Shown one piece after another: positions 1-14,274 of a stretch of 64,000 nt of DNA. The position numbers and the translations under genes were made by a program. Numbering within the stretch: position 1 is the stretch's first letter; the number at the start of each line of letters is the position of its first letter. Origin of the DNA: Candidatus Pacearchaeota archaeon (GTDB lineage: Bacteria; Patescibacteriota; Minisyncoccia; Minisyncoccales; GCA-002788555); contig DAOSAR010000001.1 in the NCBI GenBank assembly GCA_035360455.1, positions 3,328 to 67,327 on the forward strand. Direction: 5' to 3'. The notes beneath the pieces were generated by a model. It searched no databases, was not told where the DNA came from, and worked only from the letters and a program-made list of their open reading frames with translations.

Positions 1-1297
1 TTCCATAAGCAATGTTTTCTTTAACTGTGCCGGAAAAAAGCATTGCTTTTTGAGAAACGTACCCAATACGCGCTCGCAAGTCTTTTTGTTTCATATCACG
101 CACATCTACATCATCAACTAAAACCTGTCCTTCTGTAACATCATAAAAACGAGGAATTAAGTTCAAAATAGTAGACTTACCGCTTCCAGTGCTGCCAATA
201 AAAGCAGTGGTCTGACTAGGAAGAGCGACAAAAGAGATATTATGCAAAACTGGTTCAGCAGCTCCCGGATATGCAAAAGTAACATTTTTAAACTCAACCT
301 TGCCACCACGCCTAGGAGCCTTAACGGGTTTTATTGGGTCTTTTATTTGCACATCGGTCTCTAATACTTCTTCAATTCTATCAACTGAAACAGAAGCTCT
401 TGGAATAGCAATAAAGATTACAGATATCATTAAAAAAGCGGAAACTGCCTGAATTGAATATTGCATAAATGCTAACATATTTCCAACTTGAAGATTGCCT
501 AGCTCAATTTGGTGAGCGCCTAGCCAGACAATAGCTATCATCATAAAATTCATTATAAGCATCATAGCTGGCTGAAGGAGCATTAGTAAACGATTGACAA
601 AAAGATTAAGCCTCGTAAGATCTTCATTTACTTTGTTAAATTTTTCTTCTTCGTGTTTTTCTTTATTAAAAGCCTTTATTACGCGCAAACCGGTAAGAAT
701 TTCTCTTGTCACCAAGTTTAATTTATCTATTAATTTTTGAAGCCAGGCAAATTTTGGAATTACCATCTTAAAAAGCAAGGTAATTATAGCAATTAAGGCA
801 ACAACGGCAGCTCCCATAATCCAAGTCATTGATGGAGCTAATTGATAAGCTTTTAGTGTAGCAAGTACGCCTATTAAAGGAGCCATAATAGCCAATCGAA
901 AAAGCATTGTAAGCACCATTTGAATTTGCTGAACATCGTTTGTGGTACGAGTGATAAGAGAAGCAGTTGAGAATTTATTAAATTCAACAAGTGAAAAATT
1001 TTCTACCTTGGTAAATACTGCATCTCTTAAATTCTTCGCAAATCCCGCCCCAATCCTCGAAGACAAATAATTTACACCTACCGTAGCTAGTCCTCCGCCA
1101 ATAGCAATTAAGATCATAATCAAACCATTCTGTAAAATTACCTTAGTATTCTTGCCAAGTATTCCTTGGTTAATAATTTTTGCCATAAAATCCGGTAAGG
1201 CAAGTGTTGCTGAGGCTTGAAAATATATAAAAACGGCCATTAAAATAAGTGGCCAAATATACGGAGAAAGATATTTTAGAATTTTTGTTCCTTTCAT
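1..1297 (-). CDS. ABC exporter, fused permease/ATPase (MsbA/MdlB-like); C-terminus runs off the window
   Basis: Not in the ORF track (no stop in window). Own translation from ATG at 1297: MKGTKILKYLSPYIWPLILMAVF..., a TM-rich exporter core, then KVEFKNVTFAYPG...FIGSTGSGKSTILNLI (Walker A)...IGYVSQKAMLFSGTVKENIAYG. Confidence 0.85.
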   Translation of the reverse strand, partial: MKGTKILKYLSPYIWPLILMAVFIYFQASATLALPDFMAKIINQGILGKNTKVILQNGLIMILIAIGGGLATVGVNYLSSRIGAGFAKNLRDAVFTKVENFSLVEFNKFSTASLITRTTNDVQQIQMVLTMLFRLAIMAPLIGVLATLKAYQLAPSMTWIMGAAVVALIAIITLLFKMVIPKFAWLQKLIDKLNLVTREILTGLRVIKAFNKEKHEEEKFNKVNEDLTRLNLFVNRLLMLLQPAMMLIMNFMMIAIVWLGAHQIELGNLQVGNMLAFMQYSIQAVSAFLMISVIFIAIPRASVSVDRIEEVLETDVQIKDPIKPVKAPRRGGKVEFKNVTFAYPGAAEPVLHNISFVALPSQTTAFIGSTGSGKSTILNLIPRFYDVTEGQVLVDDVDVRDMKQKDLRARIGYVSQKAMLFSGTVKENIAYG

Positions 1298-1430
1298 TAT
1301 AATTAAAATAGCCAATAATTATAATGGAAAATCCTTTCTTGGTCAATATATTGGGGCAACAATACACACTTTTTTATGCTTTTTGGCTATCTTTTTTAGA
1401 AAACACGAATTCTTCCCTAGAAAGGGTTCC

Positions 1431-1466
1431 AAAATAAAAAACAGGAGTTTTAAAATTCCTGTTTTG
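1431..1466 (-). terminator. Rho-independent terminator-like hairpin downstream of aspS
   Basis: Minus strand reads AACAGGAattttaaaacTCCTGTT followed by TTTTTATTTT. A near-identical hairpin is at 9931..9960. Confidence 0.5.
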
Positions 1467-1651
1467 GTAGACTCTGCTCAACCAACGTTATTAAGAAGAT
1501 GTTTAACAGGAAAGAGGGGTTAAGAAATGAATTTGAGGCCATCACTATTCTCTAGATAAGCACTATATAAAAGAGATGATTTTCCTTTGTCAAATTTTTG
1601 AAATCTGAGAGAAACCACTTTAATGCTTGTTGGAAAAAATGTTAACATAAA

Positions 1652-3043
1652 TTATTTTTGAATATTTATTTTTAATTCTTTGAGCTGTTCCTTTCCAACT
1701 TCGGATGGAGCATTCATCATAAGATCTCTTCCCTCTCCTGTTTTTGGAAAAGTAATAACTTCACGAATATTGGGTTCGTTTTCAAGAAGCATCATTAAGC
1801 GATCAAATCCCCAAGCAATACCTCCATGAGGAGGAGCACCTGATTCCAATGCTTTAATCATATGTCCAAAATCTTTTTTGATTTTTTCTTTGGTATAACC
1901 CATTATTTCAAATACAGAAATAAGAGCTTCTGGTTTGTGATTTCTTATACTTCCTCCAGCTATCTCATAACCATTAAGCACTAAATCATATTGGGTTGTA
2001 ATAATATCTTCTATGTTTCTCTTGTCCATGAGTAAATTCATATACTCTTTTTTGGGAGCTGAAAAGGGATTATGCGTAAATGTCCACTTATCATTATCAT
2101 CTTTTTCAAAAAATGGAAAGTCAGTGACCCAACAAAAAGCAAGTAAATTCTCATCATTTTTATTTTTTCTTAAATCGGGCTTATCGCTCTTGTGCATTTC
2201 CATTGCCTCTTTAAAAGTAATGCGTGGAAATGGTATTTGCTGGATAACTTTTTGCGGATAGCACTTTTTTATTGTCTCAATAATTAATTCTTCATTTAAT
2301 CGCATCACCTCTTTCTCTTCTACAAAGCTCATTTCCATGTCTAATTGCGTAAATTCCGGCTGTCTGTCGCCTCTTGAATCTTCATCTCTAAAGCATCTAG
2401 CAAATTGAAAATACCTTTCAAACCCTGCGCACATTAAAAGCTGTTTGTATTGCTGAGGAGATTGTGGTAGGGCATAAAATTTCCCCGGCTCTAGTCTTGA
2501 AGGAACAATATAATCACGAGAACCCTCTGGTGTTGATTTTGTTAGACACGGAGTTTCTATTTCTACAAAACCCTTTTTGTTTAAAATTTCTCTCATACAT
2601 AATATCGTTTTGTGCCTATCACGAATATTTTTTTGCATCCTTTCGCGTCGCAAATCAATATAGCGATATTTAAGTCTTGCCTCTTCGTTAATATCTTTTC
2701 CATCGCCAGAAATATCAAAAGGTAGCGATGTAGATGTATTAAGAATAGACAACGATAAGGCCTCTACTTCAAGTTCACCATTTAATTCTGTTTTTTTAAC
2801 CATTTTTTCTGGTCTTAGATTTACTTTTCCTTCGATTTCTACAATCCACTCAGGCCTACATTTATTTGCAAACGAATGGACTTCTTTGTGCTTTGGTAAA
2901 ATTAATATTTGAGCTTTTCCAGTTGCATCTCTTAGAACTAAAAAAATCAATTTCCCATGATCACGCCGCGCATCTACCCAACCGTTTATTTTCACTTCTT
3001 TTCCTATGTGTTTTTTTAGATCTTTTATATATGTTCTTTGCAT
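1652..3043 (-). CDS. aspS: Aspartyl-tRNA synthetase, bacterial-type core but short (463 aa)
   Basis: FYALPQSPQQYKQLLMCAGFERYFQFARCFRDEDSRGDRQPEFTQLDMEMSF (class II motif 2 region), GGSIRNH, GGIAWGFDRLMMLL (motif 3). Confidence 0.92.
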   Translation of the reverse strand: MQRTYIKDLKKHIGKEVKINGWVDARRDHGKLIFLVLRDATGKAQILILPKHKEVHSFANKCRPEWIVEIEGKVNLRPEKMVKKTELNGELEVEALSLSILNTSTSLPFDISGDGKDINEEARLKYRYIDLRRERMQKNIRDRHKTILCMREILNKKGFVEIETPCLTKSTPEGSRDYIVPSRLEPGKFYALPQSPQQYKQLLMCAGFERYFQFARCFRDEDSRGDRQPEFTQLDMEMSFVEEKEVMRLNEELIIETIKKCYPQKVIQQIPFPRITFKEAMEMHKSDKPDLRKNKNDENLLAFCWVTDFPFFEKDDNDKWTFTHNPFSAPKKEYMNLLMDKRNIEDIITTQYDLVLNGYEIAGGSIRNHKPEALISVFEIMGYTKEKIKKDFGHMIKALESGAPPHGGIAWGFDRLMMLLENEPNIREVITFPKTGEGRDLMMNAPSEVGKEQLKELKINIQK

Positions 3044-3270
3044 AGATATAAAAATATTTAATAACGTTTAAAATAAGTCTGTTATCTTTTTATGTATTCT
3101 TATAAAGTTACAATGTCTTGTTTGGCTCTATCCTTCTAAGGTTCTAGGCAAATATTCAAAAATGTTTTAAATTAAGTAACATTGTGAACGGTGTCATAAA
3201 AATAACTCAACAGCAAACTGAGTATATTTATATCCCAGGTTTAAATTTATAACAATAATATTTTATCACA

Positions 3271-3378
3271 TTTTACCCTACCCCTCAACTCACTATATCT
3301 CAGATGGGGGGAATAAGCGAGGTTGGGATCTTTACAGATAGTTCTCCTGCACAAAATTTGAAAAATATAAGAACCTCG
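3271..3378. repeat. Conserved intergenic element, copy 1 (TTTACC-N16-TATATC core plus about 70 nt)
   Basis: TTTACCctacccctcaactcacTATATCtcagatgggg...gcacaaaatttgaaaaatataagaacc aligns with 10073..10183. It lies directly 3' of the stop of ORF 3392..3610. Confidence 0.6.
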
Positions 3379-3391
3379 CTTTTATGTACCT

Positions 3392-3610
3392 TTATAATTC
3401 TTTATAGCTCTTTTCAAAAATATCTTTTTTTTCAACAGGAAGTTCAATTTCAATAGTAGTGCCTCCTATATATTCATTATTTTTTATTTTTACTTTTCCT
3501 CCACACTCTTCTACTACCTTTATATCTTCTTTTAAATCTCGTTTCTTTTTTAAAATAGTAAGTTTGTTTTTAATAAAAACAAATGGTTTCATATAGAATT
3601 TCATATACAA
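3392..3610 (-). pseudogene. Small ORF, possible C-terminal remnant of a histidine-kinase ATPase domain
   Basis: GGKVKIKNNEYIGGTTIEIELPV resembles the G2-box/C-terminal strand of the adjacent kinase (NGKIWAESQGKGKGSTFYVELPV). The N-terminal half has no kinase similarity. Confidence 0.35.
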
Positions 3611-3635
3611 CTTTGTTTTATTAAACTTTTTTTAT

Positions 3636-5291
3636 TTATTTTACGGGTAGCTCAACATAGAAGGTGGAACCCTTACCTTTGCCTTGGGATTCTGCCCAGA
3701 TTTTGCCATTGTGGGCTTTAACAATTTCTGAGGCAAAGTAGAGGCCTATGCCAACTCCGGAAGGGTTGGTGGAAACTGCATCTTTGGATCTTTCGAATAC
3801 TTGAAAGAGTTTTTCTTTTTCTTTTGGGGTCATACCCATGCCTGTATCTTGAACAATAGTTAGAATAGTTCTTGAGTTGTTGTTGTGCTGTACACTTATT
3901 GTAACTCCACCTTCTTTTGTGTATTTTAGAGCATTGTCAACAAGATTTAAGATAACTTCTCTTAGTTTTTGGGAATCAGCTGTTATTTTGGGTAGGGGGT
4001 GTTTGGGTTTGTTGAATTTAAGGTAGAGATTGTATTTTTGGGCTTCGGGCTGGAATTCATTAACTACTTCTTGGATAATATCTTCTAACTGAACGTTGTC
4101 TTGAAAACTAAATTGAAGTTTGCCTGTTTGGAGTTTGTTGAGATCTAAAAGATCATTTACTAAGTTTATTTCTTTTTCGTTTGATCTTTTAACTTCTTCG
4201 ATGAACTCTCTTGCTTTGCCTTGTACTTTGCCGTAGTTACCAGATAGGGCTAGTTCTAAATATCCTTTCATACTGGAGAGAGGGGTTCTGAGTTGATGGG
4301 AAGCAAGGCTGAGGAACATTGTTTTAGTTTCATCTAACCTTTTGTACTCGTTAGCTACTTTTTCTGCTTTTTTTCTTAGGGCTCTTTCTCTGATAGCTAA
4401 CTTTTCAGCTTCTTCTCTTTTTTTCTCTTCTTCGTGAGAGTAGTTTATAAGCTGGTGACCAAGAAAACAGAAAAAAAGAAAGATAGCTAAGCTTGATATT
4501 CTCCAGGTAAGAGTAGGAGCTAAGAATACTTGGATTAGCAATAATATTCCCATTACTCCTACCAAAAGATCAGTTAAAATTACCCTAACTCCAAAAAGTT
4601 GTTTTGCTATTATTGCATAAGCAGTAAAACCTACAAAAAAGATAGAAGAATAGTTACCAAAACGATAATAGATGTCTGAACCAGTAAGAAGAGGAAAAAT
4701 AATGTTAAATACTATGCTAAATAAAGCAAAAATTCCTATCCCCACAAGAAAGTACTGAAGTTGCTTCTTTTCTTGCGCAGAAAGTTTTTTGTACCCTTTT
4801 AAAATTATAAATAAGCAAAAACCCAAAAGGAAAATAATATATGGAAAAAAACAAAAATAATATAATGGCCCGTAAATCAAGTCAAAACTTCCATCTAGGT
4901 GTATAAAAATATTTTTTATTCCAAAAGATGTAAACAAAAATAAAAGGAAAATAAAGAAAGAAATATAAAAAATAATTTTGAAAATATCTTTTTTGAGTAC
5001 AGGAAAAATTTCATAGAAATAAGTTAAAATAAAGAAAAAAATAAAAGTTGCTGAAAGTAAACTACTACTAACAGCTATTTTACTAAAAAGGAGAGAAAGA
5101 GATGGATTTGTCAATGGGAAAAATTCAGAAACATAGGCACTAATAATCCAAAGAATTATTGATAAAGAGAAATAGAAGAAAAATCGATATTTCTGTTTTT
5201 TTGAATTTTTCAAAAAAACCACCAATCCTAAGAAAAAATTTCCTAAAGAGATTATTATTACAAGAATTGTTTCCCAAGTTCCTAATATCAT
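3636..5291 (-). CDS. Sensor histidine kinase with a large polytopic membrane sensor region
   Basis: About 280 aa of TM helices, a coiled coil, H-box SHQLRTPLSSMKGY, N-box LVDNALKYT, G1 DTGMGM, G2 GVGIGL. Confidence 0.88.
   Translation of the reverse strand: MILGTWETILVIIISLGNFFLGLVVFLKNSKKQKYRFFFYFSLSIILWIISAYVSEFFPLTNPSLSLLFSKIAVSSSLLSATFIFFFILTYFYEIFPVLKKDIFKIIFYISFFIFLLFLFTSFGIKNIFIHLDGSFDLIYGPLYYFCFFPYIIFLLGFCLFIILKGYKKLSAQEKKQLQYFLVGIGIFALFSIVFNIIFPLLTGSDIYYRFGNYSSIFFVGFTAYAIIAKQLFGVRVILTDLLVGVMGILLLIQVFLAPTLTWRISSLAIFLFFCFLGHQLINYSHEEEKKREEAEKLAIRERALRKKAEKVANEYKRLDETKTMFLSLASHQLRTPLSSMKGYLELALSGNYGKVQGKAREFIEEVKRSNEKEINLVNDLLDLNKLQTGKLQFSFQDNVQLEDIIQEVVNEFQPEAQKYNLYLKFNKPKHPLPKITADSQKLREVILNLVDNALKYTKEGGVTISVQHNNNSRTILTIVQDTGMGMTPKEKEKLFQVFERSKDAVSTNPSGVGIGLYFASEIVKAHNGKIWAESQGKGKGSTFYVELPVK
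4287..4560. repeat. 274-bp direct repeat, copy A (last TM, linker and H-box start of the kinase)
   Basis: Aligns without indels to 7633..7906, with about 14 mismatches by hand count (roughly 95% identity). Flanking kinase sequence is much more diverged. Confidence 0.9.
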
Positions 5292-5294
5292 ATT

Positions 5295-6782
5295 TTAAAA
5301 TAAATTTTTAGGTTTCACTTTTTTATTTTCTTCTCCAAATGGTCCTTGTCTAAAAGTGAATATTTTAATTAAGGGATCAACAAATTGTGGAGATTTCTGA
5401 TAAGCATCTTTAAAATCAATATCATTTAACAATGTATTTAAAATTACATCGTGATATTTTTTTATAATTTTATTTTGATTTTTAAAAGATATACCTGGTA
5501 AAGTTTCCAAGTACACAACGAAATGAGGATTATTTTCTTTTTCTTCAATGCCTATTTTAAAATTGTTTATAAAATTTTCCCCTAAAGAATCTATTGCTAT
5601 TTTAACTTGTTCAGGATAAATATTGGCACCAAGGCAAATAACCGCTTGGTCTGTTCTCCCCTTTAAAAATACAAAAGGCCATTTTATTGGTTTTTTCGAA
5701 AATCTATTTTCTTTTAACTCTTCGATTTCGATGTTTTTTTCTATTTCATTAAATTTCTTTACTTCTCCTCTGTCTTTAATTCTATATCTTATAATTGGAA
5801 GTTGGCAAAATTCAAAATTTCTAGTAATTATCAATTCATTATTAATTTCTTCTATATATACTAAAAGAGGAATATATTGGAACACTGAAAAATGTTGTTT
5901 AAATTTAGACGAGTTGTTTAAAAATATTTTTTGAAATAGATTTGAAAATGGGGTAGAAATTGCCATTATACCAGTTTCGCTTGCGCTATACATATCAATT
6001 ATTTCAGATATTAAATTAATATGAAGTTTTTCAGATAAAAAATTTTTAAAATTCCAGGTGAGAGGTTCGCCTGCGCAAAGAGGAATTATTTTATAATCCT
6101 CCCAATTTAATTTTCTTTTATCTCCTTCTTGGATAATTAAACGGAAAAAAGAAGGATAAGTAGAAATTATAACAAAATCATAAAATTTTCCCGTTTCTTC
6201 AAGTAAACCTACTATAGTCTCAGGAGAAAGTCCACACAAGGCAACACTTAATTGATACTTTGAATTTTTTCCAATTTCGATAGAAAAAAGAGTGGCCACA
6301 ATACTAGCATACCAAGTTCCAAGAGCAAATGCATTAATATATAAAACCTTTTTTTCAGAAAAATCTAAAAGATATTCAAGATAAATTTTAATCGATGAAG
6401 GATCGAATTCTTTTTGAAAATGAGATTGGAGCAATGGTTTTCCCGTAGTTCCTCCAGAAGTAGAAAAGATAAAAGGGAATGAAGAAGATGGCTTCGATCT
6501 TTCTTGAAGAGAGTATTGATTTGTATAATTTTCTTTGGTAGTAAGGGGTACATACTTTTTAAAATCATCTATTGTTTTAATCTTGGTATGGTCTTGAATT
6601 TCGTGTTTTTTAAGAAAGTCCCTGTAGGCAGGAACTTTCTCAGCAGCTTCATGAAAGGTTTTTAGAGCAAGATTCTCTCCTTGCTTTTCCCAAAAATCTG
6701 GTTTCATTGAAGTCATAAACCAGATTGCTCTTTTTGGATTGGACATTATGAGGTTTTGCATTATATCAGTAAATTTTGCCAT
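5295..6782 (-). CDS. Adenylate-forming enzyme, phenylacetate-CoA ligase / coenzyme F390 synthetase family (ANL superfamily)
   Basis: FSTSGGTTGKP (P-loop-like AMP motif), YSASETG, IRYRIKDRG, LKGRTDQAVICLGANIYPEQV. Same motif order as PaaK. Confidence 0.72.
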   Translation of the reverse strand: MAKFTDIMQNLIMSNPKRAIWFMTSMKPDFWEKQGENLALKTFHEAAEKVPAYRDFLKKHEIQDHTKIKTIDDFKKYVPLTTKENYTNQYSLQERSKPSSSFPFIFSTSGGTTGKPLLQSHFQKEFDPSSIKIYLEYLLDFSEKKVLYINAFALGTWYASIVATLFSIEIGKNSKYQLSVALCGLSPETIVGLLEETGKFYDFVIISTYPSFFRLIIQEGDKRKLNWEDYKIIPLCAGEPLTWNFKNFLSEKLHINLISEIIDMYSASETGIMAISTPFSNLFQKIFLNNSSKFKQHFSVFQYIPLLVYIEEINNELIITRNFEFCQLPIIRYRIKDRGEVKKFNEIEKNIEIEELKENRFSKKPIKWPFVFLKGRTDQAVICLGANIYPEQVKIAIDSLGENFINNFKIGIEEKENNPHFVVYLETLPGISFKNQNKIIKKYHDVILNTLLNDIDFKDAYQKSPQFVDPLIKIFTFRQGPFGEENKKVKPKNLF

Positions 6783-6801
6783 AGATTTATTTATTATTAA
6801 A

Positions 6802-7584
6802 TTATACCTCTTCCCACAAATCTAAAAATATGGGTTGGGGAGCTTTTTTAAGTGGTTGACCTGAAAGCCACTTTACTATTCCATTAACAACTATTGAGGA
6901 AGTAAGATAAGTAGTAGCGCCAAGCTGAGGACCTGATAGTTCAGAAAGATTTTTTTGACCCATTTTTTTGTAAAACTGTAAAAGATCGGCTGGAAAGGTC
7001 GAGAAAGTATTTTGAAGAAGTTTTAAATAAAATCTATTGTCGCGATAAGTTTCTTCGCCTACAATTTCTCTTAATTTTGGAGAATCAGGGGTAAAAACTA
7101 AAACATAACCTCCCCAAGCAATATTTAAAGGGAAAAAAACTGGCTTTCCTGTATCTTGAGAGTAATCATTAACAAAATATAAAATTTCTTCTGGATCAGC
7201 CATATTTACTACTACATCTGATTTATCTATTAGTTCTTTGGCTAATTTTTTGCTTCTTAAAAAAATAGGATAATACTCAACATTAGCTTTTGGATTTATT
7301 TCTTTTATCATTGAAGCAAGGGCCTCAGCTTTGTTTTTTCCTATGTGTTTATATCTAAAAGCTTGACGGTTAAGATTACTAATATCTACCTTGTCTCCAT
7401 CAATTAAGACAAAGTTCATAAAACCGGTTCTGGCAGCTAAAACTCCAATTTGAGCTCCAAGGCCACAACCCAACAGCATAATTTTGCATTTTTTAATTTT
7501 CTCTTGAAGCTTTTTGGGGATAATGAATTTGTGTCTTAAAACTAAATCTTTATAATTTAAGTTTGGTTTAGAATTTTTTGCCAT
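6802..7584 (-). CDS. E1-like adenylyltransferase, ThiF/MoeB/HesA family (260 aa, no CxxC zinc motifs)
   Basis: KIMLLGCGLGAQIGVLAARTG (Rossmann GxGxxG-like), LIDGDKVDISNLNRQ, KNKAEALASMIKEINP. Confidence 0.75.
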   Translation of the reverse strand: MAKNSKPNLNYKDLVLRHKFIIPKKLQEKIKKCKIMLLGCGLGAQIGVLAARTGFMNFVLIDGDKVDISNLNRQAFRYKHIGKNKAEALASMIKEINPKANVEYYPIFLRSKKLAKELIDKSDVVVNMADPEEILYFVNDYSQDTGKPVFFPLNIAWGGYVLVFTPDSPKLREIVGEETYRDNRFYLKLLQNTFSTFPADLLQFYKKMGQKNLSELSGPQLGATTYLTSSIVVNGIVKWLSGQPLKKAPQPIFLDLWEEV

Positions 7585-7611
7585 ATTATTAATTATTATT
7601 TTACGCTCTTT

Positions 7612-8598
7612 TTAATAAGAATTGCAAGAAACTCTGAGTTGATGGGAGGCAAGGTTGAGGAACATTGTTTTAGTTTGGTCTAAACTCTTGTACTCGTTAG
7701 CTACTTTTTCTGCTTTTTTTCTTAGGGCTCTTTCTCTGATCGCTAACTTCTCAGCTTCCTCTCTTTTTTTCTCTTCTTCGTGAGAGTAGCTTATAAGCTG
7801 GTGACCAAGAAAACAGAAAAAAAGAAAGATAGCTAAGCTTGATATTCTCCAGGTAAGAGTGGGAGCTAAAAATACTTGGATTAGCAATAATATTCCCATA
7901 ATTCCTACTAACATTTCTGTCAGAATAACCTTGATGTTAAAGAGATGATATTTGAGAATGGCAAAGGCAATGATTAGAGGGTAAAGAAATATTACAAAGT
8001 TTCCATAAGGATATAGTTCAAATCCATACCATTGAGGAAGATTAAAAAGACCGCCTATAGCAGCTATTCCTAAGGCTAAAATAAAATAACCAATCTGTTT
8101 TTTCTTTTCTCCTGTTAGGTGGAAATAATTTTTAATTAATGTTCCAAAAGTGATAACAACCAAGGTTAATCCCCAAACAATATTTAAATTAGCTACTATT
8201 CCTGCCTGCGGCCAATAAGAATAAAAAGAATAAGTCTTAAGCTTTGAAATAAAGAAGGGTGTGAATATCAAAATTATTATTAAAAAACTTATTGAATACA
8301 ACAAAATTAAACTTTTTTTTCTTCTTCCTTCTAAATTTAAAAGAATTAAACCAAGATGATAAAGAAATACTGATGAAAAAATTGAACCGACCATTAATAA
8401 TCTAAGAAAAAATAGACTTTTTTCTTCATTTTGAACTGCTTGCCAAAATCCATAATTTAACTGCCAAAAAGATAATGCCAAGCTAAACAAAAAGAAAATT
8501 TGATTTTCTTTTTTACTTTTATTCCTGAAATAAACAAAAATACCTAAAATTAAAATTAAAAAACAATTTATAAATCCTGAAAAAGCGAGAATACTCAT
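7612..8598 (-). CDS. Truncated sensor kinase paralog: TM sensor, linker and H-box start only, no catalytic domain
   Basis: A diverged polytopic N-terminus, then about 90 aa near-identical to the 551-aa kinase, ending ...LASHQLRVSCNSY*. Its start overlaps the methyltransferase stop (ATGA). Confidence 0.7.
   Translation of the reverse strand: MSILAFSGFINCFLILILGIFVYFRNKSKKENQIFFLFSLALSFWQLNYGFWQAVQNEEKSLFFLRLLMVGSIFSSVFLYHLGLILLNLEGRRKKSLILLYSISFLIIILIFTPFFISKLKTYSFYSYWPQAGIVANLNIVWGLTLVVITFGTLIKNYFHLTGEKKKQIGYFILALGIAAIGGLFNLPQWYGFELYPYGNFVIFLYPLIIAFAILKYHLFNIKVILTEMLVGIMGILLLIQVFLAPTLTWRISSLAIFLFFCFLGHQLISYSHEEEKKREEAEKLAIRERALRKKAEKVANEYKSLDQTKTMFLNLASHQLRVSCNSY
7633..7906. repeat. 274-bp direct repeat, copy B
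   Basis: See 4287..4560. Homology begins 21 nt after the stop codon side of the truncated ORF (tctgagttgatggga...). Confidence 0.9.
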
Positions 8599-9392
8599 AA
8601 TGGTTTGTTAACTTTGTTTACTAAAACTTGTTTTCCAAAGCTGATTTTCCATTTTGAATTTTGAAAACCAATTTGAATTAATAAATTTTCGTATTCTTCT
8701 TCGCTAAGAAATGTATACTCTTCGACTGGTGTAAAAAATTTTATCATTTTAATTGCAAAATATGGTAAAAAACATTTTTGTTTTATCCATTGACATGGGT
8801 TTAATAGATAAATTGAAGCAAGCAAAGCTCCTGTTAAACGACTAACATCTTTTTTGGGGGTGCTCCATATTAATACTCCACCGGGTTTTAAAATTCTATA
8901 TATCTCTTGAAAGATTACTTTCAGTGCATTTTTGCCTTTTTGTCCTTGGGATTCTATAATATACGTTATAACTTTACTCGATACAATTCCATCAAAATAG
9001 TTATCAGGAAATGGTAGTTTTTGAGAAAGATCAATATGTTGTAGTTTTATAGAAGAGTTGCCTAGTTCTTGGAGTCTTTTTTTAGCAGGTTCTAAATAAA
9101 GATCTCCTGCTATAATTTCTACTTCTCCTTTTGATTTTTCCAAGATTAGTTCTGTAACAGGAAGAGATCCACAACCAAGATCTAACCATTTTTGACCTTT
9201 TTGAGGATTAATAAATTCATTAATTACTTTTAATTCATTTTGATAATGCGGAAGATTTAAGAAAGCATCTCTATATTTGCTTATCATTAATTCTGCATAT
9301 TCTTTCCAAAACTCCCTTTCTTCTTCTTGAATTTTGTTTAAATCCTCTTCTCTTGACACGTTTTTTTTGTTTTGATAAGATTCTTGTGCCAT
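8595..9392 (-). CDS. Class I SAM-dependent methyltransferase
   Basis: WLDLGCGSLPVT (motif I), IIAGDL (post-I), FDGIVSS, LKPGGVLIWSTP. Confidence 0.75.
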   Translation of the reverse strand: MAQESYQNKKNVSREEDLNKIQEEEREFWKEYAELMISKYRDAFLNLPHYQNELKVINEFINPQKGQKWLDLGCGSLPVTELILEKSKGEVEIIAGDLYLEPAKKRLQELGNSSIKLQHIDLSQKLPFPDNYFDGIVSSKVITYIIESQGQKGKNALKVIFQEIYRILKPGGVLIWSTPKKDVSRLTGALLASIYLLNPCQWIKQKCFLPYFAIKMIKFFTPVEEYTFLSEEEYENLLIQIGFQNSKWKISFGKQVLVNKVNKPL

Positions 9393-9403
9393 ATATAAGT
9401 GGT

Positions 9404-9570
9404 AAGACAGCTTTCTTCATTTAAGTCTTTATTGGTTTTTGAATTTATATATATTTATCTATATAAAACAGAACAGAAGTTCTGTTTTATATATTTATTC
9501 CTTACCTTATTTTTTATTAATATTAACTATTAAGCTCAAAAACCTCAACAAAATAAAAGAAAGCTGTCTT
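9404..9570. repeat. MITE-like nested inverted repeat in the operon upstream region
   Basis: Perfect 14-bp terminal inverted repeat AAGACAGCTTTCTT (9404..9417) / AAGAAAGCTGTCTT (9557..9570). It encloses a perfect 12-bp hairpin ATAAAACAGAAC-agaa-GTTCTGTTTTAT (9462..9490). Confidence 0.6.
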
Positions 9571-9835
9571 TTATTTTAATTAGGTTAACCTTTGTGTTTA
9601 TTTTATACTCTTTGAGTGAAGATTGCAAAAAAATATTTAAAACCGACACTTTAAGAATTAAGAAGTTATTAAGTTCAAGAATTTAACGCAACATTATGGT
9701 AGTATACCATAAAGTAATAAGAAGCGTTAAATTCTATAAAAACATATCATCGTCTAAGTTTTATTAAATTAATAAATTTAATAAAGTTCAAATCTCTTTA
9801 TTAAAATGCAGACCGAAAATCAACTTTTCATTAAT

Positions 9836-9906
9836 TTATTTTCTCACTTAGCTTTGAATTAAATTAACCCAATTATGCCAGGCGTCTGTATTTTGTGGTT
9901 TATCAT
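9836..9906 (-). pseudogene. Fragment of a paralog of the 12142..12867 gene (last ~17 codons only)
   Basis: 9836..9883 matches 12142..12189 with 3 mismatches in 48 nt. It translates YDKPQNTDAWHNWVNLIQS* versus ...STNAWHNWINLIQSQVRK*. Upstream homology is lost and stops appear. Confidence 0.6.
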
Positions 9907-9930
9907 AGTTTCTTTAAAAACTTCAAAATG

Positions 9931-9960
9931 AAAAAACAGGATTTTTGAATCCTGTTTTTT
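9931..9960. terminator. Symmetric (bidirectional-looking) terminator hairpin
   Basis: AAAAAACAGGAtttttgaATCCTGTTTTTT, with A-run and T-run on either side. Confidence 0.55.
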
Positions 9961-10072
9961 AGTAACTCCCGCAATGGGACAATTTCAGAATGCTTAAATG
10001 GTCAGATTCAATACAATGTCCTGAGATAATGATAAAACAAATACAAGAACTATTGCAGGTTGTTTAAAATGT

Positions 10073-10183
10073 ATTTACCCCACCTTTCAACTCACTATTT
10101 CTCAGGTGGGGGTGGGAGGTAAAGTTGAGGTTCTTTGAGAAAGTGTATATGGTACTCGTACGCAATTTTTGAAAAATAACAGG
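10073..10183. repeat. Conserved intergenic element, copy 2
   Basis: TTTACCccacctttcaactcacTATTTCtcaggtggggg...cgcaatttttgaaaaataacagg. Contains a perfect 8-bp hairpin CCCCACCT-N18-AGGTGGGG. Confidence 0.6.
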
Positions 10184-10187
10184 AGGG

Positions 10188-10224
10188 TTTACCCTACTCC
10201 TCTACTCACTATATTTTCTAAGGG
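10188..10224. repeat. Conserved intergenic element, copy 3 (core only)
   Basis: TTTACCctactcctctactcacTATATTttctaaggg. It ends 1 nt before the stop codon of ORF 10226..10765. Confidence 0.55.
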
Positions 10225-10225
10225 A

Positions 10226-10765
10226 TCAATATTTTACTTTTTCCCAATCTGTATTTAAAATACAACCCTCTATGCATTCTTCCCTAGTTGAATAACCCTT
10301 AGTTGAAAAATCTATAGTTATAGTTGGAAAATCCTTCCAATATTTCCAATATGACCAAACCCCTTCTCCTTGTTGTGTAATTTCATAAGTGCATCGTTTT
10401 TTACAATCATTAACTTTTGCAACGTGATTAGAAATTATTATACTCCCTGTTACAATAATGGCTATAATAATTAACCAAAACCACCATTTTTTCCAGACTG
10501 GACTTTTCTCAACTTTTTCTCTATGTTGAAACTCCCAAATCCATTTATGAAAGTAATTTATAACTAAAGCTACTATTGCTGAAAAAGAAATTAAAGTAAA
10601 AAACATTCCAAATATTTCCCCTACTGAAGCCTCATCTTCATTTAGGCTTATAATAGTTATAACCGTCATTAAAACACTAATAATAGCAAAAACAGCAAAT
10701 TTAATTAAAAATTCTCTTTTAAAATTAAACTTAATATTAGATTTTTGTATTGGTTCTTTTTCCAT
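10226..10765 (-). CDS. Hypothetical membrane protein with a C-terminal 4-Cys extracytoplasmic domain
   Basis: Three predicted TM helices, including KKWWFWLIIIAIIVTG (the same WWFWL anchor motif as ORF 19797..20339). The tail has C..C...C..C. Confidence 0.5.
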   Translation of the reverse strand: MEKEPIQKSNIKFNFKREFLIKFAVFAIISVLMTVITIISLNEDEASVGEIFGMFFTLISFSAIVALVINYFHKWIWEFQHREKVEKSPVWKKWWFWLIIIAIIVTGSIIISNHVAKVNDCKKRCTYEITQQGEGVWSYWKYWKDFPTITIDFSTKGYSTREECIEGCILNTDWEKVKY

Positions 10766-11000
10766 AATTTTTAATTTTTTATTATAAATAGTGGTATCTT
10801 TTTATATTCTCTTAATTTATTAATAATTTTTTAATTATTTAAATTCTTCATTTTTTGGGTTTATCAAGTTTTTTGATTCTTGTATTGTATTGTATTATTC
10901 TCTTCAAAATAATTTACTATCCATAAAAAGATTTTTTTTATTATATTCTTTGCTTTTTTGAATTTGATCTTGGCTCATTTTTTTTCTTAATTTCTATATT

Positions 11001-11957
11001 TTATTTTAAAAGATTTTTATATTGTTTATTTTTTTGCCTTTTGAGAATTAAACTTGCAATTAAAAAACAAATTCTAGTTGCTCCTAATGCCCAAGAAGAA
11101 ATAGGAATGTTATTTACCATTGCTAATAATGCCGAAGTTAAAGTTGGCTTGGCGGTTTCTTCCTCAGGAAAAAATTGAGATTCATTAGAAATCGTTGTAG
11201 GTTCTTCTGGATTCTCTAAAGTTGGCTCAGTAACCTTTTTTTCGGGCAGAGATTGAAATTCATTAGAAGCTGTTGTTGGCTTTTCTGGATTCTCGGTAGA
11301 ATTTTCTATCTTTTGTTCTGGTTCTGAAATTGATTCTATTTGTTGAGTCTGTGGTTTCGCTTCTGGTTGAGAAACAATTTCGGAAGTTCGTTCTTGGGTT
11401 ACTTCTGGAGTTTGTTTTGTCTGAGGAGTTGGTGAAACAGAGTTTAAAGACGAATTTATTTCTGGTAATGTTGATGGTGAAGGTGTGTTTATATCTGGCG
11501 TGTAAGTATAATTAGTTGGAGGAGTATATGGAATGGATGGATAATCATTTATCCTTTCAACACTAGAAACAAGACAATTTTCATTAGAATCAAAAAGGTA
11601 GATTTCATCACCCATGCTTAAGAATCCCCCATCATCTATATTAATATATTGATTTTTATATTGCCGCATACTGAAGCATCCGATGCCATATTTAACAAGA
11701 TATTTATTGGTTCCATATTCATTTTTGAGTATAACTTCTCTTTTATTATCAACTACTGAATCAACAAAATATTTTTGAAGATTAACTTTTTTAGGAACAT
11801 TACCAACCTTACAAGTGTTTGTTTGGCCAAAGCTATTAATAATAGTATCTCCAAACATTGGTGAGATAAGTGTATCAATATAAATATATTGCCCTTCGAA
11901 AAAATCACTGCTATAGCAGTCATAGTTATAATCAATAATAATATTGTGAAATTCCAT
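11001..11957 (-). CDS. Surface-protein-like ORF: globular N-domain, P/T/E/Q-rich low-complexity repeats, C-terminal TM plus basic tail
   Basis: Internal repeat ENPEKPTTASNEFQSLPEKK / ENPEEPTTISNESQFFPEEE. C-terminus ICFLIASLILKRQKNKQYK. No signal peptide in this frame (see 11932..12105). Confidence 0.55.
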   Translation of the reverse strand: MEFHNIIIDYNYDCYSSDFFEGQYIYIDTLISPMFGDTIINSFGQTNTCKVGNVPKKVNLQKYFVDSVVDNKREVILKNEYGTNKYLVKYGIGCFSMRQYKNQYINIDDGGFLSMGDEIYLFDSNENCLVSSVERINDYPSIPYTPPTNYTYTPDINTPSPSTLPEINSSLNSVSPTPQTKQTPEVTQERTSEIVSQPEAKPQTQQIESISEPEQKIENSTENPEKPTTASNEFQSLPEKKVTEPTLENPEEPTTISNESQFFPEEETAKPTLTSALLAMVNNIPISSWALGATRICFLIASLILKRQKNKQYKNLLK

Positions 11958-12105
11958 CAGTTATTAATAAACTTCGAAAACCGAACTTTTCCTCTACTAA
12001 AAAAGCTTTCAAATTTGAAGCCGAAACAAAATTAGCCATTAGAAATATGGATATTAAAAAAGATAAAATAAATATTCTTTTAAATTTTTGTTTAGTTTTG
12101 TCCAT
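11932..12105 (-). CDS. 57-codon ORF encoding only a signal peptide; probably the frameshifted 5' end of 11001..11957
   Basis: Own translation: MDKTKQKFKRIFILSFLISIFLMANFVSASNLKAFLVEEKFGFRSLLITDGISQYYY*. It overlaps the downstream ORF start by 26 nt in another frame. Confidence 0.45.
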   Translation of the reverse strand: MDKTKQKFKRIFILSFLISIFLMANFVSASNLKAFLVEEKFGFRSLLITDGISQYYY

Positions 12106-12141
12106 TGTGATCGAATTTTTTATTTCTTAAGATTACCGGCT

Positions 12142-12867
12142 TTATTTTCTCACTTGGCTTTGGATTAAATTAATCCAATTATGCCAGGCATTAGTTGATT
12201 CAAGATTATCCCAACCTTCTTGAGTGTTTAAATCTATATTATCTTTTTCGATTGTAGTTTGGAGGTCGTTGTAATATTTAGAGATGGTTTCAAAACTTTG
12301 AACAAAGGTTTGTTCTTCTGGGGTTAAGTTATCTTTATTTACTGGATAGTATCTTTGAACTAATGACCAGGACTGAGCAGTTGTGGCATAAGCAGTACTT
12401 TCAAGTTCTAAAATACTGTTTTGCCAGTGTTCTTTTGAAGTATCTTTATATTGAGTGTTTCTTTCCCATTTATGAGTAAGTTCATGATATAAGATAGGCA
12501 GCCAGATTTCACTTTTAATATTCAAATATGGGTTGATATATAAAATATCACTGACCATATCGTATTGGGCAGGATGATCTTCTGGGTAGGTTTTTGCTTC
12601 GGGAATAAGTTCTGTGATATCTCCTAGAGGAATTTCTCCTTTTTTAAGTTCTTCCAATACATAGTTATGAACTTCCAATAACCCTGATGGAATCTCTGGA
12701 GCATTATCTACCATATTTACCGCTTCATTTAATCTTTCAAGTACAATCTTTTGATTAGTTTTCTTTGAGCCTCCTAAAAGAAAACCTGCAAAGAAAAGGG
12801 CAACAATAATCAAAATGCCAATAATAAGGAAAAGTTTATTCTTTCCCCGTTTTTTGGGGTTTAACAT
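12142..12867 (-). CDS. Membrane-anchored HExxH protein (putative zinc metallopeptidase-like)
   Basis: N-terminal anchor KLFLIIGILIIVALFFAGFLLGG. The motif LPILYHELTHKW (HELTH) is the only catalytic-type signature. Confidence 0.45.
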   Translation of the reverse strand: MLNPKKRGKNKLFLIIGILIIVALFFAGFLLGGSKKTNQKIVLERLNEAVNMVDNAPEIPSGLLEVHNYVLEELKKGEIPLGDITELIPEAKTYPEDHPAQYDMVSDILYINPYLNIKSEIWLPILYHELTHKWERNTQYKDTSKEHWQNSILELESTAYATTAQSWSLVQRYYPVNKDNLTPEEQTFVQSFETISKYYNDLQTTIEKDNIDLNTQEGWDNLESTNAWHNWINLIQSQVRK

Positions 12868-13020
12868 ATTGTCGCAATGGATTTTATTTGAACGGCGTCC
12901 AATAGAAAAGGACTTCCGTTCTTATGACAATTCCTTTCGGAACTGTCTATCGTCTTTTGACGATAACCATTGCGACAAAAAAACAGAACGGAAGTCCGTC
13001 TCTATGTCGCAATGGATTTT
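12868..13020 (-). promoter_or_regulatory. Structured 5' leader with mutually exclusive helices
   Basis: TGTCGCAATGGATTTT at 12870..12885 and 13005..13020, with the inverted copy CCATTGCGACA at 12967..12977. Perfect 13-bp pair 12910..12922 / 12985..12997. Hairpins at 12948..12965 and about 12924..12946. Confidence 0.5.
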
Positions 13021-13110
13021 TATGCCATGTCCTTTTAGGATTTAGGCAATTAATGTTATAAATTTAAATTTTCAAAAAAAATAAAAAACAGAAGATCTCT
13101 TTTCTTTAAG

Positions 13111-13194
13111 TGCCCAGGGAGGGACTCGAACCCTCAAGGACGTATGTCCAACAGATTTTAAGTCTGTCGCGTATACCAGTTCCGCCACCTGGGC
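13111..13194 (-). tRNA. tRNA-Leu (anticodon UAA)
   Basis: GCCCAGG acceptor, anticodon loop CUUAAAA, long variable arm, T-arm GAGGGTTCGAGTCCCTC, discriminator A, no encoded CCA. Confidence 0.9.
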
Positions 13195-13212
13195 ATTTTA
13201 AAATATTCATTT

Positions 13213-13285
13213 AGGCCAGGGCGAGAATTGCACTCGCGCATAGCGATTTTGCAGACCGCCGTGTTAGCTACTTCACCACCTGGCC
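13213..13285 (-). tRNA. tRNA-Cys (anticodon GCA)
   Basis: GGCCAGG acceptor, anticodon loop CUGCAAA, discriminator U. The T-arm GCGAG-TGCAATT-CTCGC has an atypical T-loop. Confidence 0.8.
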
Positions 13286-13302
13286 TAATAAATTATTGTA
13301 GC

Positions 13303-14274
13303 TTATCTCTTTTCTTTTTTCAATTCTTTTTTTATCCTTTCTAAGACCTCAAAAAGATTCCCTTCAATCTTGCAACCAGCTGCATATTTATGACCACCTC
13401 CTCTAAATTTTTGGGCAATCCTAGAAACATCTACTCCATTATAAGAACGAAGAGAGACTTTAATTTTATGTTTTTGCTCTATTAAGGTGAGATAAATTTC
13501 TGCATCGCCAATACTTGCAAGGAAATCAGGAAAAATTGGTGGCTCAGATAAGTTCAATCCTTTTTCTCCTTTAAAATCTGACATCAAAAGATAAGAATAA
13601 ATTAAATTTAAATTTCCATCTTTTTCTGCTCTTTCAAGAAACTTTGCTAAAATTTTTGCTCGACTTAATTCTAAATGCTGATAGGCAGACATTATTTTGA
13701 ATAATTCACCACCAGCTAAAATTAACTCTCCTATGATTTTTTCAACTTTTTGATAGTTTTGGCTACTTCGACAAAAACCGACAGTATCAGTCAAAATTCC
13801 TGTTAAAAGAAGTGTGGCTAAGTTTTTGTTAATTTCTACTTTTTGGAATTTAAAAAATAAATAAATCATCTCAGCAGTTGAAGAAGCCTTGGGACCAATT
13901 AGCTTTATCTTTCCAATTCTATCACCGCTAAGATGGTGATCAAAAGTAATAACTTTTTGATGTAAAAGTTTAATATTTTGAGGAATTTCTAATCTTTCTT
14001 TATCAGCATAATCTAAGGCAAATATCAAATCGAAATTAGGATTCTCTGGCGGTTTTTGTTGAAGTTTTTCAAATCCAGGCAAAAATCTTAAAAATTTCGG
14101 AGGTTGAGGTATAAAGATAAAGGCTTGCTTTTTTTGTTTTTGAAAAAAGTAATTTAAAGCTAAAGCTGAACCAATAGCATCTCCATCGGGCGCTCGATGA
14201 GTCAGAATTAAAATCCTTTTATTTTTTTGAATTTCTTTTTTAACTTGATTAAATTTTGCAGTGCTAATTTCCAC
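13303..14274 (-). CDS. DHH/DHHA1 phosphoesterase (NrnA-like oligoribonuclease / pAp phosphatase)
   Basis: HRAPDGDAIGSALAL, FDHHLSGD, GGGHKYAAG. Confidence 0.8.
   Translation of the reverse strand: MEISTAKFNQVKKEIQKNKRILILTHRAPDGDAIGSALALNYFFQKQKKQAFIFIPQPPKFLRFLPGFEKLQQKPPENPNFDLIFALDYADKERLEIPQNIKLLHQKVITFDHHLSGDRIGKIKLIGPKASSTAEMIYLFFKFQKVEINKNLATLLLTGILTDTVGFCRSSQNYQKVEKIIGELILAGGELFKIMSAYQHLELSRAKILAKFLERAEKDGNLNLIYSYLLMSDFKGEKGLNLSEPPIFPDFLASIGDAEIYLTLIEQKHKIKVSLRSYNGVDVSRIAQKFRGGGHKYAAGCKIEGNLFEVLERIKKELKKEKR

Follow-up and report, generated by a model that had tools for sequence, protein, structure and literature searches.

This analysis concerns a block of six genes in a 64,000-nt stretch of DNA (contig DAOSAR010000001.1; hereafter the window) from a low-GC metagenome-assembled genome (MAG) deposited as 'Candidatus Pacearchaeota archaeon'. 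The block holds a gene for an AclA-like adenylyltransferase of the E1/ThiF family, followed by genes for a PaaK-family ligase and a full sensor histidine kinase, and preceded by genes for a methyltransferase dependent on S-adenosylmethionine (SAM) and a seven-transmembrane (7TM) protein without a kinase core; a 72-aa open reading frame (ORF) closes it (Table 1). All six ORFs lie on the minus strand in one orientation, with a 4-nt ATGA overlap between the methyltransferase stop and the start of the kinase-less 7TM gene, and remaining gaps of 27, 19, 3 and 25 nt. A preliminary description, made from the nucleotide letters alone, had given the same layout, which the ORF coordinates reproduce in full, along with the motifs DISNLNRQ, STSGGTTGKP, YSASETG, IRYRIKDRG and GRTDQAVICLGANIYP, all of which are present in the translations. 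It had seen in these genes a cassette of two adenylases and a methyltransferase embedded in a split kinase locus. Comparison with relatives draws the conserved unit differently, and points to a putative module in which the maker of a small molecule is encoded beside its receptor.

Table 1. Features of the six-gene block and its repeats, in window coordinates
Feature	Position	Strand	Length and basis
Class I SAM-dependent methyltransferase	8595..9392	-	265 aa; Methyltransf_11 E 3.8e-13 (Pfam)
Kinase-less 7TM protein	7612..8598	-	328 aa; Pfam HisKA_7TM only
AclA-like E1/ThiF-family adenylyltransferase	6802..7584	-	260 aa; Pfam ThiF E 1.9e-35
PaaK-family (ANL superfamily) adenylate-forming ligase	5295..6782	-	495 aa; profile and AlphaFold2 fold
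Full sensor histidine kinase	3636..5291	-	551 aa; HisKA_7TM + HisKA + HATPase_c (Pfam)
ORF reading as HATPase_c C-terminal remnant	3392..3610	-	72 aa; translation; no Pfam match
300-nt direct repeat, upstream copy (codes TM7, linker, H-box)	7633..7932		92% identity to 4287-4586
300-nt direct repeat, downstream copy, within full kinase gene	4287..4586		92% identity to 7633-7932
71-nt direct repeat, copy 1	3272..3342		72% over 71 nt to 10074-10144
71-nt direct repeat, copy 2, 680 nt upstream of methyltransferase start	10074..10144		pairs with 3272-3342

At the core of the module stands the E1-like enzyme, which is invariant. Besides its Pfam match, the protein has the Rossmann ATP site of ThiF/MoeB-type enzymes, with the Arg finger and the catalytic Asp. 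All adenylation motifs are kept across an alignment of 49 homologues (the GxGxxG loop, here GCGLG; DGD…NLNRQ; NKA; and D130), and the positions invariant in the clade are G39/G41/G43, D62, D64, N70-Q74, N84-A86, D130 and P219/Q220/G222. The clade has a PQLG motif of its own and, beyond the glycine loop, no conserved cysteine; the translation also lacks a CxxC zinc motif, as had been reported, and the protein has no catalytic cysteine. A profile search of the PDB returned 9EGB, 9EGC and 9EGD (released 2025-08-13) as its sole full-length match, the first being titled 'AclA from Tenacibaculum discolor in complex with substrate'. The E1 profile aligns with 9EGB over residues 8-243 (E 2e-45), the C-terminal helical half included, and Foldseek places the AlphaFold2 (AF2) model of the protein (mean predicted local distance difference test, pLDDT, 90.5) on the same structure at E 9e-22 with a template modelling (TM) score of 0.81-0.85. 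Next among the structural neighbours come PaaA, ThiF, MoeB, MccB and eukaryotic E1s, whose sequence matches span the Rossmann half only. Of the E1-like enzymes with known biochemistry, TcdA/CsdL (the tRNA t6A dehydratase), MccB and PaaA share the Rossmann adenylation core and set a precedent for an E1 that acts on an N-acylated amino-acid carboxylate with neither a thioester nor a sulfur relay. They differ in that sequence similarity is confined to the N-terminal half, and in that the window E1 lacks an N-terminal peptide-clamp domain and any context for a tRNA or peptide substrate; in both translation and AF2 model it begins directly with the Rossmann domain.

The adenylation core also invites comparison with anti-phage defence, in the form of CBASS Cap2 or other E1-E2 systems. 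PADLOC E1-E2 models match the Rossmann half of the protein (best 74.5 bits) and NCBIfam 6A-MBL cap2_3 scores 60 bits on it, but these matches span the generic adenylation domain only, and genes for an E2, a JAB, a CD-NTase and an effector are all absent. With no PADLOC match to the ligase, no other defence match and neighbourhoods made up of housekeeping genes, a defensive role is highly improbable.

By profile and by model, the 495-aa protein is an ANL enzyme of the PaaK family, though not a PaaK equivalog. Pfam gives only a sub-threshold AMP-binding match, and the NCBIfam PaaK models score 45.5 bits against a cut-off of 700 and 41.7 against 646; a profile of its homologues, however, matches the PaaK structure 4R1L at E 2e-30 in the PDB. 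With the AF2 model (pLDDT 92.4), Foldseek finds PaaK1/BT_0428 first (TM score 0.68-0.80), then ClxA, AjiA1 and NatL2, while GH3 structures rank 37 and below. The window ligase has the fold and the ANL motifs of all these enzymes, and its homologues conserve the P-loop, the hinge, E239, D337, G375-R376 and the C-terminal K490. From PaaK it differs in sequence (16-17% identity), in being about 60 residues longer and in having no paa operon; its neighbours are the E1 and the kinases, with no paa catabolic genes around it. The structural neighbours ClxA, NatL2 and AjiA1 are CoA-independent ligases of the PaaK family. There is no Pfam GH3 match, yet the protein is distantly homologous to GH3-like proteins of Chloroflexota (hhalign 95%, E 4e-8).

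Loci related to the block were collected with the E1 as bait, 16 from genomes (scanned with a 15-sequence E1 alignment) and 80 from metagenomes, and their ORFs were classified with profiles built for this analysis. The 87 non-redundant loci (designated by L numbers) come from Paceibacteria, Saccharibacteria, Minisyncoccales, Dehalococcoidia/Chloroflexota and one gammaproteobacterial MAG. E1 and ligase homologues repeatedly share contigs, and the order E1, ligase, 7TM kinase is found in unrelated surroundings, for instance between dnaE and thrS (L001) or by ATP synthase genes (L003); on the strength of these shared contigs and of the census below, the pairing of E1 and PaaK-like genes is genuine and conserved, as first proposed. 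Among 67 non-redundant E1-clade loci with at least 700 nt downstream, the gene next to E1 encodes a PaaK-like ligase in 24, a GH3-like ligase (matching Pfam GH3, GH3_M and GH3_C) in 21, a FeeM-like protein of about 215 aa (matching FeeM, the N-acyl amino acid synthase family, and Acetyltransf_5) in eight, and the 7TM kinase directly in six. In five of these last six, the five with upstream sequence, a FeeM/LuxI-like gene lies immediately upstream of E1, and 7TM-only genes lie farther upstream. In Chloroflexota, it is GH3-like genes, relatives of the GH3 amido synthetases that include OlsH, that hold the ligase position between E1 and the 7TM kinase; the window protein differs from them in being PaaK-like. 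A HisKA_7TM ORF follows E1 in 41 of the 46 loci with at least 3 kb downstream, and the 7TM domain is kept even when the kinase core is HisKA_3 instead of HisKA, and with GAF insertions. A homologue of the methyltransferase (30% identity) occurs in a single other locus of the 87 (L030).

Based on this census, the conserved unit is an E1, an interchangeable amide-forming enzyme and a HisKA_7TM kinase, joined by a recurrent kinase-less 7TM paralogue; it is not the trio of methyltransferase, E1 and ligase that had been suggested, and the methyltransferase is a lineage-specific accessory. Nor do two adenylases define the module, since the ligase position is held in other lineages by GH3-like ligases or by FeeM/LuxI-like acyltransferases, which do not adenylate, and the downstream 7TM histidine kinase, previously taken as flanking context, is the conserved third partner. 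That a single position is filled by three enzyme types with distant or no relationship amounts to a clean non-orthologous displacement, which constrains the likely product. Two further loci, L012 (10600-16717) and L089 (6900-14723), each carry two E1 copies among mixed FeeM-like, PaaK-like, kinase-less 7TM and full kinase genes, and look like partly duplicated or nested modules. In L024, whose E1 is 86% identical to that of the window, the region 6127-9965 contains YcaO, ABC ATPase and nitroreductase genes and a 50-aa ORF directly upstream of E1, a cluster resembling those for azoline-type ribosomally synthesized and post-translationally modified peptides (RiPPs); a Ppx-GppA gene sits between E1 and ligase there.

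The census also disposes of the most ordinary account of the pair, that a housekeeping ThiF/MoeB protein and a phenylacetate-CoA ligase lie side by side by chance with kinase pseudogene debris nearby. The source annotations, 'ThiF family adenylyltransferase' and 'phenylacetate-CoA ligase', speak for this account. However, the E1, like the ligase, falls far below the NCBIfam equivalog cut-offs (for ThiF 102 against 159 and 88 against 275; for MoeB 75 against 449; for TcdA 40 bits against 304), no ThiS, MoaD or paa gene provides a context, and linkage is conserved across phyla, with FeeM-like domains fused to E1. It had already been suspected that neither enzyme was an ordinary ThiF/MoeB or PaaK; the neighbourhood census refutes the chance pairing, the probability of which is negligible.

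A second established use of E1 chemistry is the modification of a protein or peptide C-terminus, in the manner of ubiquitin-like proteins or of RiPPs of the MccB/PaaA type, the target here being possibly the kinase or a small precursor. Such activity is canonical for E1 enzymes, PaaA and MccB are among the structural neighbours, and the close relative L024 has its YcaO and nitroreductase genes and a 50-aa ORF upstream. A search of positions 1-14000 of the window gave no credible small ORF ending in GG or N, in agreement with the preliminary description, which had reported neither a GG-ended nor an MccA-like mini-ORF; no ThiS/MoaD-type GG-ended carrier gene lies near E1 in that interval, and none recurs in related loci. 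The only small ORFs that do recur across loci are membrane genes of about 90 aa of the semiSWEET type. The E1 has no peptide-clamp domain, E2 or JAB partner, cysteine or zinc site, and the YcaO context is unique to L024. A modified peptide, one of the two products once envisaged, loses its footing with no precursor ORF and no clamp domain to support it, and we consider this explanation very improbable.

The kinase genes have a history of their own. In the 551-aa protein, HisKA (E 4.8e-14) and HATPase_c (E 2.3e-24) matches show an H-box DHp domain and a catalytic domain, and its 7TM region is orthologous to that of the kinases which follow E1 and ligase in relatives (299 bits to L001, 212 bits to L024); it is the conserved kinase of the module and its presumed receptor. 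An assignment to PrsK, the PEP-CTERM kinase, was rejected at 26 bits against 300. The 328-aa protein consists of a divergent HisKA_7TM domain, which reaches only 20-28 bits against the module kinases, a linker and the start of the H-box, and it ends six codons past SHQLR with no ATPase domain. Both genes contain the 300-nt repeat, which went unnoticed in the preliminary description; it ends exactly at SHQLR, and its copies bracket the E1, the ligase and the second 7TM region. The locus is split, as that description had it, yet its 'truncated kinase' is not just debris, for modules in other phyla also contain 7TM genes without a kinase core. Those of L012 (351 aa) and L089 (327 aa) likewise end just past the H-box and share a repeat with their own full kinase (112 nt at 95% and 80 nt at 98%, respectively); L050 and L040 have similar upstream kinase-less ORFs, and L020, L022, L098 and L100 have one to four tandem 7TM-only genes.

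The block was found in four other assemblies, in every one of which the 328-aa ORF is intact. No assembly lacked the block, and all long contigs with an identical aminoacyl-tRNA synthetase gene show the same arrangement. Differences between assemblies are patchy: the genes for E1, ligase and aminoacyl-tRNA synthetase and the second 7TM region are free of them; clusters occur at the repeat edges and in the methyltransferase N-terminus, and a single assembly has one in the kinase catalytic domain. Relative to L112, L113 and L116, the patches are 9257-9352 (methyltransferase N-terminus, with a 3-nt indel), 7870-7975 (repeat edge) and 3795-4116 (kinase catalytic domain). Gene conversion between the two repeats is ongoing in the population, because in L116 eight of the 12 upstream-copy sites that differ from the window (7741-7924) carry the allele of the downstream copy, the matching alleles lying at 7741-7921. 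The window's copies differ at 13 synonymous and 10 non-synonymous nucleotides, a ratio that is weakly informative. The kinase gene may undergo strain-level recombination, since two of the compared contigs also begin within it. For the kinase-less 7TM protein several roles are conceivable: functional partner of the kinase, decoy, substrate for recombination, or a by-product that is maintained. The 72-aa ORF (…GGKVKIKNNEYIGGTTIEIELPV), identical in all assemblies, reads as the C-terminal end of an HATPase_c domain and is probably the relic of an earlier kinase rearrangement. The 71-nt repeats bracket the whole six-gene block together with the 680-nt upstream spacer; a 39-nt degenerate pattern drawn from them, with five variable positions set to N, has no match in the 64 kb besides the two copies, and none in 100 shuffles. 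They could be an old insertion mark or a repeated regulatory element. Together, the HATPase remnant and the bracketing repeats point to a history of rearrangement at the block.

Protein fusions tie the E1 to particular partners. An exhaustive search with the E1 profile gave 297 representative clusters at E ≤ 1e-30, and fusions were inspected in the best 150 of these (proteins are given as P numbers). A FeeM/Acetyltransf_5/Autoind_synth domain is fused to E1 in four to six proteins of the best 150 (P0362, P0390, P0391, P0402, P0438), with an Autoind_synth score of 38.6 bits in P0391, so that, on Rosetta-stone reasoning, the E1 and an N-acyl-amino-acid or LuxI-type acyltransferase belong to one pathway. 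Receiver domains are fused to E1 in P0201, P0205, P0206 and P0348, in operons that also hold GH3, 7TM-GAF kinase, OmpR-type regulator and major facilitator superfamily (MFS) transporter genes. Separate response regulators lie downstream of the kinase in L005, L006, L022 and L098. In P0167 and P0173, the E1 is preceded by three transmembrane segments (3TM); the P0173 extension was considered as a relative of the semiSWEET-type (MtN3_slv) proteins, and had no detectable similarity to the gene of that type in L006. Further fusions include a C-terminal domain of about 400 aa (P0377, P0380, P0387, P0392, P0404, P0412, P0431 and P0457), which in P0377 and similar proteins has no Pfam match and no similarity to the FeeM profile, and a class I/II aminotransferase domain in P0457.

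The closest relative of the E1 provides a parallel from another group. The AclA family comprises 1337 proteins at E ≤ 1e-20, the named members of which belong to Flavobacteriia. In four Flavobacteriaceae genomes (Zobellia, Polaribacter and two of Tenacibaculum type), aclA lies beside a convergent gene for a 252-aa GerE/LuxR-type regulator and a divergent gene for a protein of 201-227 aa, the latter homologous to the FeeM-like enzymes of the module (hhalign probability 96.5%, E 8.5e-10). The triad of E1-like enzyme, N-acyl amino acid synthase (NAS)-like enzyme and dedicated regulator thus recurs with another type of receptor. The likeness of AclA to the window E1 covers sequence and fold over the full length and a shared C-terminal PQLG/PQLS motif, and extends to the FeeM-like gene and dedicated regulator alongside; AclA is nonetheless only 29% identical to the window protein, its regulator is a cytosolic LuxR/GerE protein where the module has a 7TM kinase, and its partner enzyme is FeeM-like where that of the window is PaaK-like. 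Beyond these three genes in L108-L111 lie a TonB-dependent receptor-like gene, an ORF of about 60 aa and a radical SAM gene, or alternatively either phosphopantetheinyl transferase and non-ribosomal peptide synthetase (NRPS) genes or two ORFs of about 50 aa with a C39-ABC exporter, and these loci look like regulated secondary-metabolite clusters. A Riemerella gene by the regulator of an AclA homologue was considered as FeeM-like and proved to be an ABC fragment. No account of the module or of AclA was found in open-access literature text. Because its complex with substrate has been solved, AclA has presumably already been characterised by others.

Linkage, fusions, fold and family assignments and gene conversion are directly supported by these data; substrates, product and ligand would follow from them by analogy. 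The three alternating enzymes belong to families with amide-forming members, and their shared chemistry would be the N-acylation of an amino acid. TcdA (on the N-carbamoyl-threonine of t6A), MccB (C-terminal Asn) and PaaA (Glu) all use carboxylate adenylation to drive cyclisation. Among the alternating families, the bacterial GH3 enzyme OlsH carries out ATP-dependent N-acyl ornithine synthesis (PMC12493201), and FeeM-type N-acyl amino acid synthases have structural homology to autoinducer synthases (PMC4897644). The PaaK-family enzyme would thus adenylate a carboxylic (fatty or aryl) acid and couple it to the amino group of an amino acid or derivative, the same net reaction as that of the GH3-like and FeeM/LuxI-like enzymes at this position elsewhere. 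The E1 would adenylate the amino-acid moiety at its free carboxylate, either before the acyl group is attached or afterwards, leading to cyclisation or capture by a nucleophile; this step is proposed because an N-acyl amino acid has one free carboxylate and cysteine-less E1s adenylate such carboxylates. The product would be a carboxyl-modified, probably cyclised, molecule of the N-acyl-amino-acid type and would serve as the ligand of the adjacent 7TM kinase. The methyltransferase may decorate it, in this lineage only, and the kinase-less 7TM protein, its linker and H-box gene-converted against the real kinase, may act as kinase partner or decoy or as recombination substrate. We give about an even chance to this reading of the module as a synthase-receptor pair for an N-acyl-amino-acid-derived small molecule. 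The original idea of an amide-linked conjugate that acts as a signal is favoured by the wider evidence, except for the methyltransferase, which is no conserved part of it.

The same enzymes might instead serve the membrane. The product could be an N-acylated amino acid lipid akin to lyso-ornithine lipid, the E1 activating the head-group carboxylate for extension or cyclisation. The 7TM kinase would then sense the state of the membrane and control the pathway, instead of detecting a diffusible signal. The FeeM-related acyltransferase OlsB makes N-acyl ornithine, membrane-anchored E1 variants exist (3TM plus E1), and the receiver-E1 fusions imply that the kinase controls enzyme activity. GH3-like OlsH likewise makes N-acyl ornithine for ornithine lipids (PMC12493201), and the GH3-like protein of L005 weakly matches the OlsH model, although at 19 bits against a cut-off of 620. 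However, the neighbourhoods show no recurrent O-acyltransferase gene or other gene of lipid assembly, the FeeM-like members also match the autoinducer synthase family, and the AclA parallel, with its cytosolic LuxR-type regulator by RiPP and NRPS clusters, is more typical of signalling. An aminolipid pathway is the main rival to a synthase-receptor pair, and in our judgement an unlikely one.

Transporters raise a further alternative. A semiSWEET-type (MtN3_slv) 3TM gene lies directly upstream of E1 in seven loci, and an MFS transporter lies beside the module in L005, L007 and L010. Patescibacteria depend on scavenged metabolites, and a compound imported through such proteins could be activated by both enzymes for assimilation or detoxification, with the kinase sensing the external substrate. 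The FeeM/LuxI-like and GH3-like enzymes are, on the other hand, biosynthetic conjugating enzymes, no catabolic genes recur, and the E1 fusions involve synthase-type domains, so that an uptake and processing function seems improbable.

Several points weigh against the synthase-receptor reading itself. Its chemistry is drawn from family analogy; CoA thioesters are the usual product of PaaK-family enzymes, and amide formation is assumed here. Adjacency of the kinase fits equally well with a kinase that regulates the pathway and does not sense its product. Five loci have no nearby 7TM gene beside E1 (L010, L026, L039, L045 and L105). The six-gene block includes no transporter gene, and the 64-kb window holds no response regulator, a scan of all its ORFs for receiver domains having been negative, as first reported. 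Finally, the real substrate of AclA could contradict the N-acyl-amino-acid idea.

Pairs of synthase and receptor genes are already a familiar concept. LuxI/LuxR, LuxM/LuxN and the NAS/PrsK pair of the PEP-CTERM system all place an acyl-amide synthase gene beside a presumed receptor gene, and relatives of the window block have FeeM/LuxI-like members inside the module and fused to E1. An NAS has been genetically linked to the PEP-CTERM system (PMC4897644, citing Craig 2011). The module differs from all of these pairs in its obligatory E1-like second enzyme, its HisKA_7TM receptor and its interchangeable ATP-dependent ligases. The window itself has no autoinducer synthase but a PaaK-like ligase instead, and Autoind_synth and FeeM matches are seen only in relatives (L022, P0391).

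Beyond the module, the surroundings of the block offer several observations. The closest relatives of the module genes are in Paceibacteria and other Patescibacteria, and because these homologues are bacterial the archaeal label of the source may be wrong. The minus strand carries all seven tRNAs and 58 of the 60 window ORFs that reach 120 aa; the two plus-strand ORFs sit inside longer minus-strand ORFs. A scan of 3000-10300 for promoters and terminators gave background levels and is uninformative on operon structure. An Rfam LOOT RNA at 12926-13048 (minus strand; 63.8 bits, above the gathering score) adjoins tRNA-Leu and tRNA-Cys. A 70-nt direct repeat of 81% identity (9835-9904 and 12141-12210) places a duplicate of the 3' end of the ORF at 12142-12867 within the long non-coding spacer upstream of the methyltransferase. 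Two tandem 78-nt units, 73% identical, occur at 11139-11294 within a 318-aa ORF (11001-11957) that has no Pfam match.

The features of most interest are the breadth of phyla, with members of the candidate phyla radiation (CPR) among them, the three-way displacement of enzymes and the obligatory E1 partner. If the proposal is true, a pair of genes annotated 'ThiF family' and 'phenylacetate-CoA ligase' would mark a compact synthase-receptor module common to Patescibacteria, Chloroflexota and some Proteobacteria, with the AclA, LuxR-type and FeeM-like genes of Flavobacteriaceae as its parallel. A bolder extension, possible but doubtful, is a signalling family over several phyla, in which the E1 and its interchangeable partner would make carboxyl-activated or cyclised N-acyl amino acid autoinducers for HisKA_7TM receptors and the kinase-less 7TM genes would be a gene-conversion reservoir that modulates or swaps receptor specificity; this would be the first candidate chemistry for cell-cell or host-symbiont signals in CPR/Patescibacteria. 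A separate point of interest, and a curiosity in the evolution of sensor kinases, is the concerted evolution directly observed for the gene-converted kinase-less paralogue. If the synthase-receptor proposal holds, E1-like chemistry would be extended to small acyl-amino-acid metabolites, and two soluble enzymes and a kinase would provide a tractable handle on sensing and signalling by ultra-small symbiotic bacteria.

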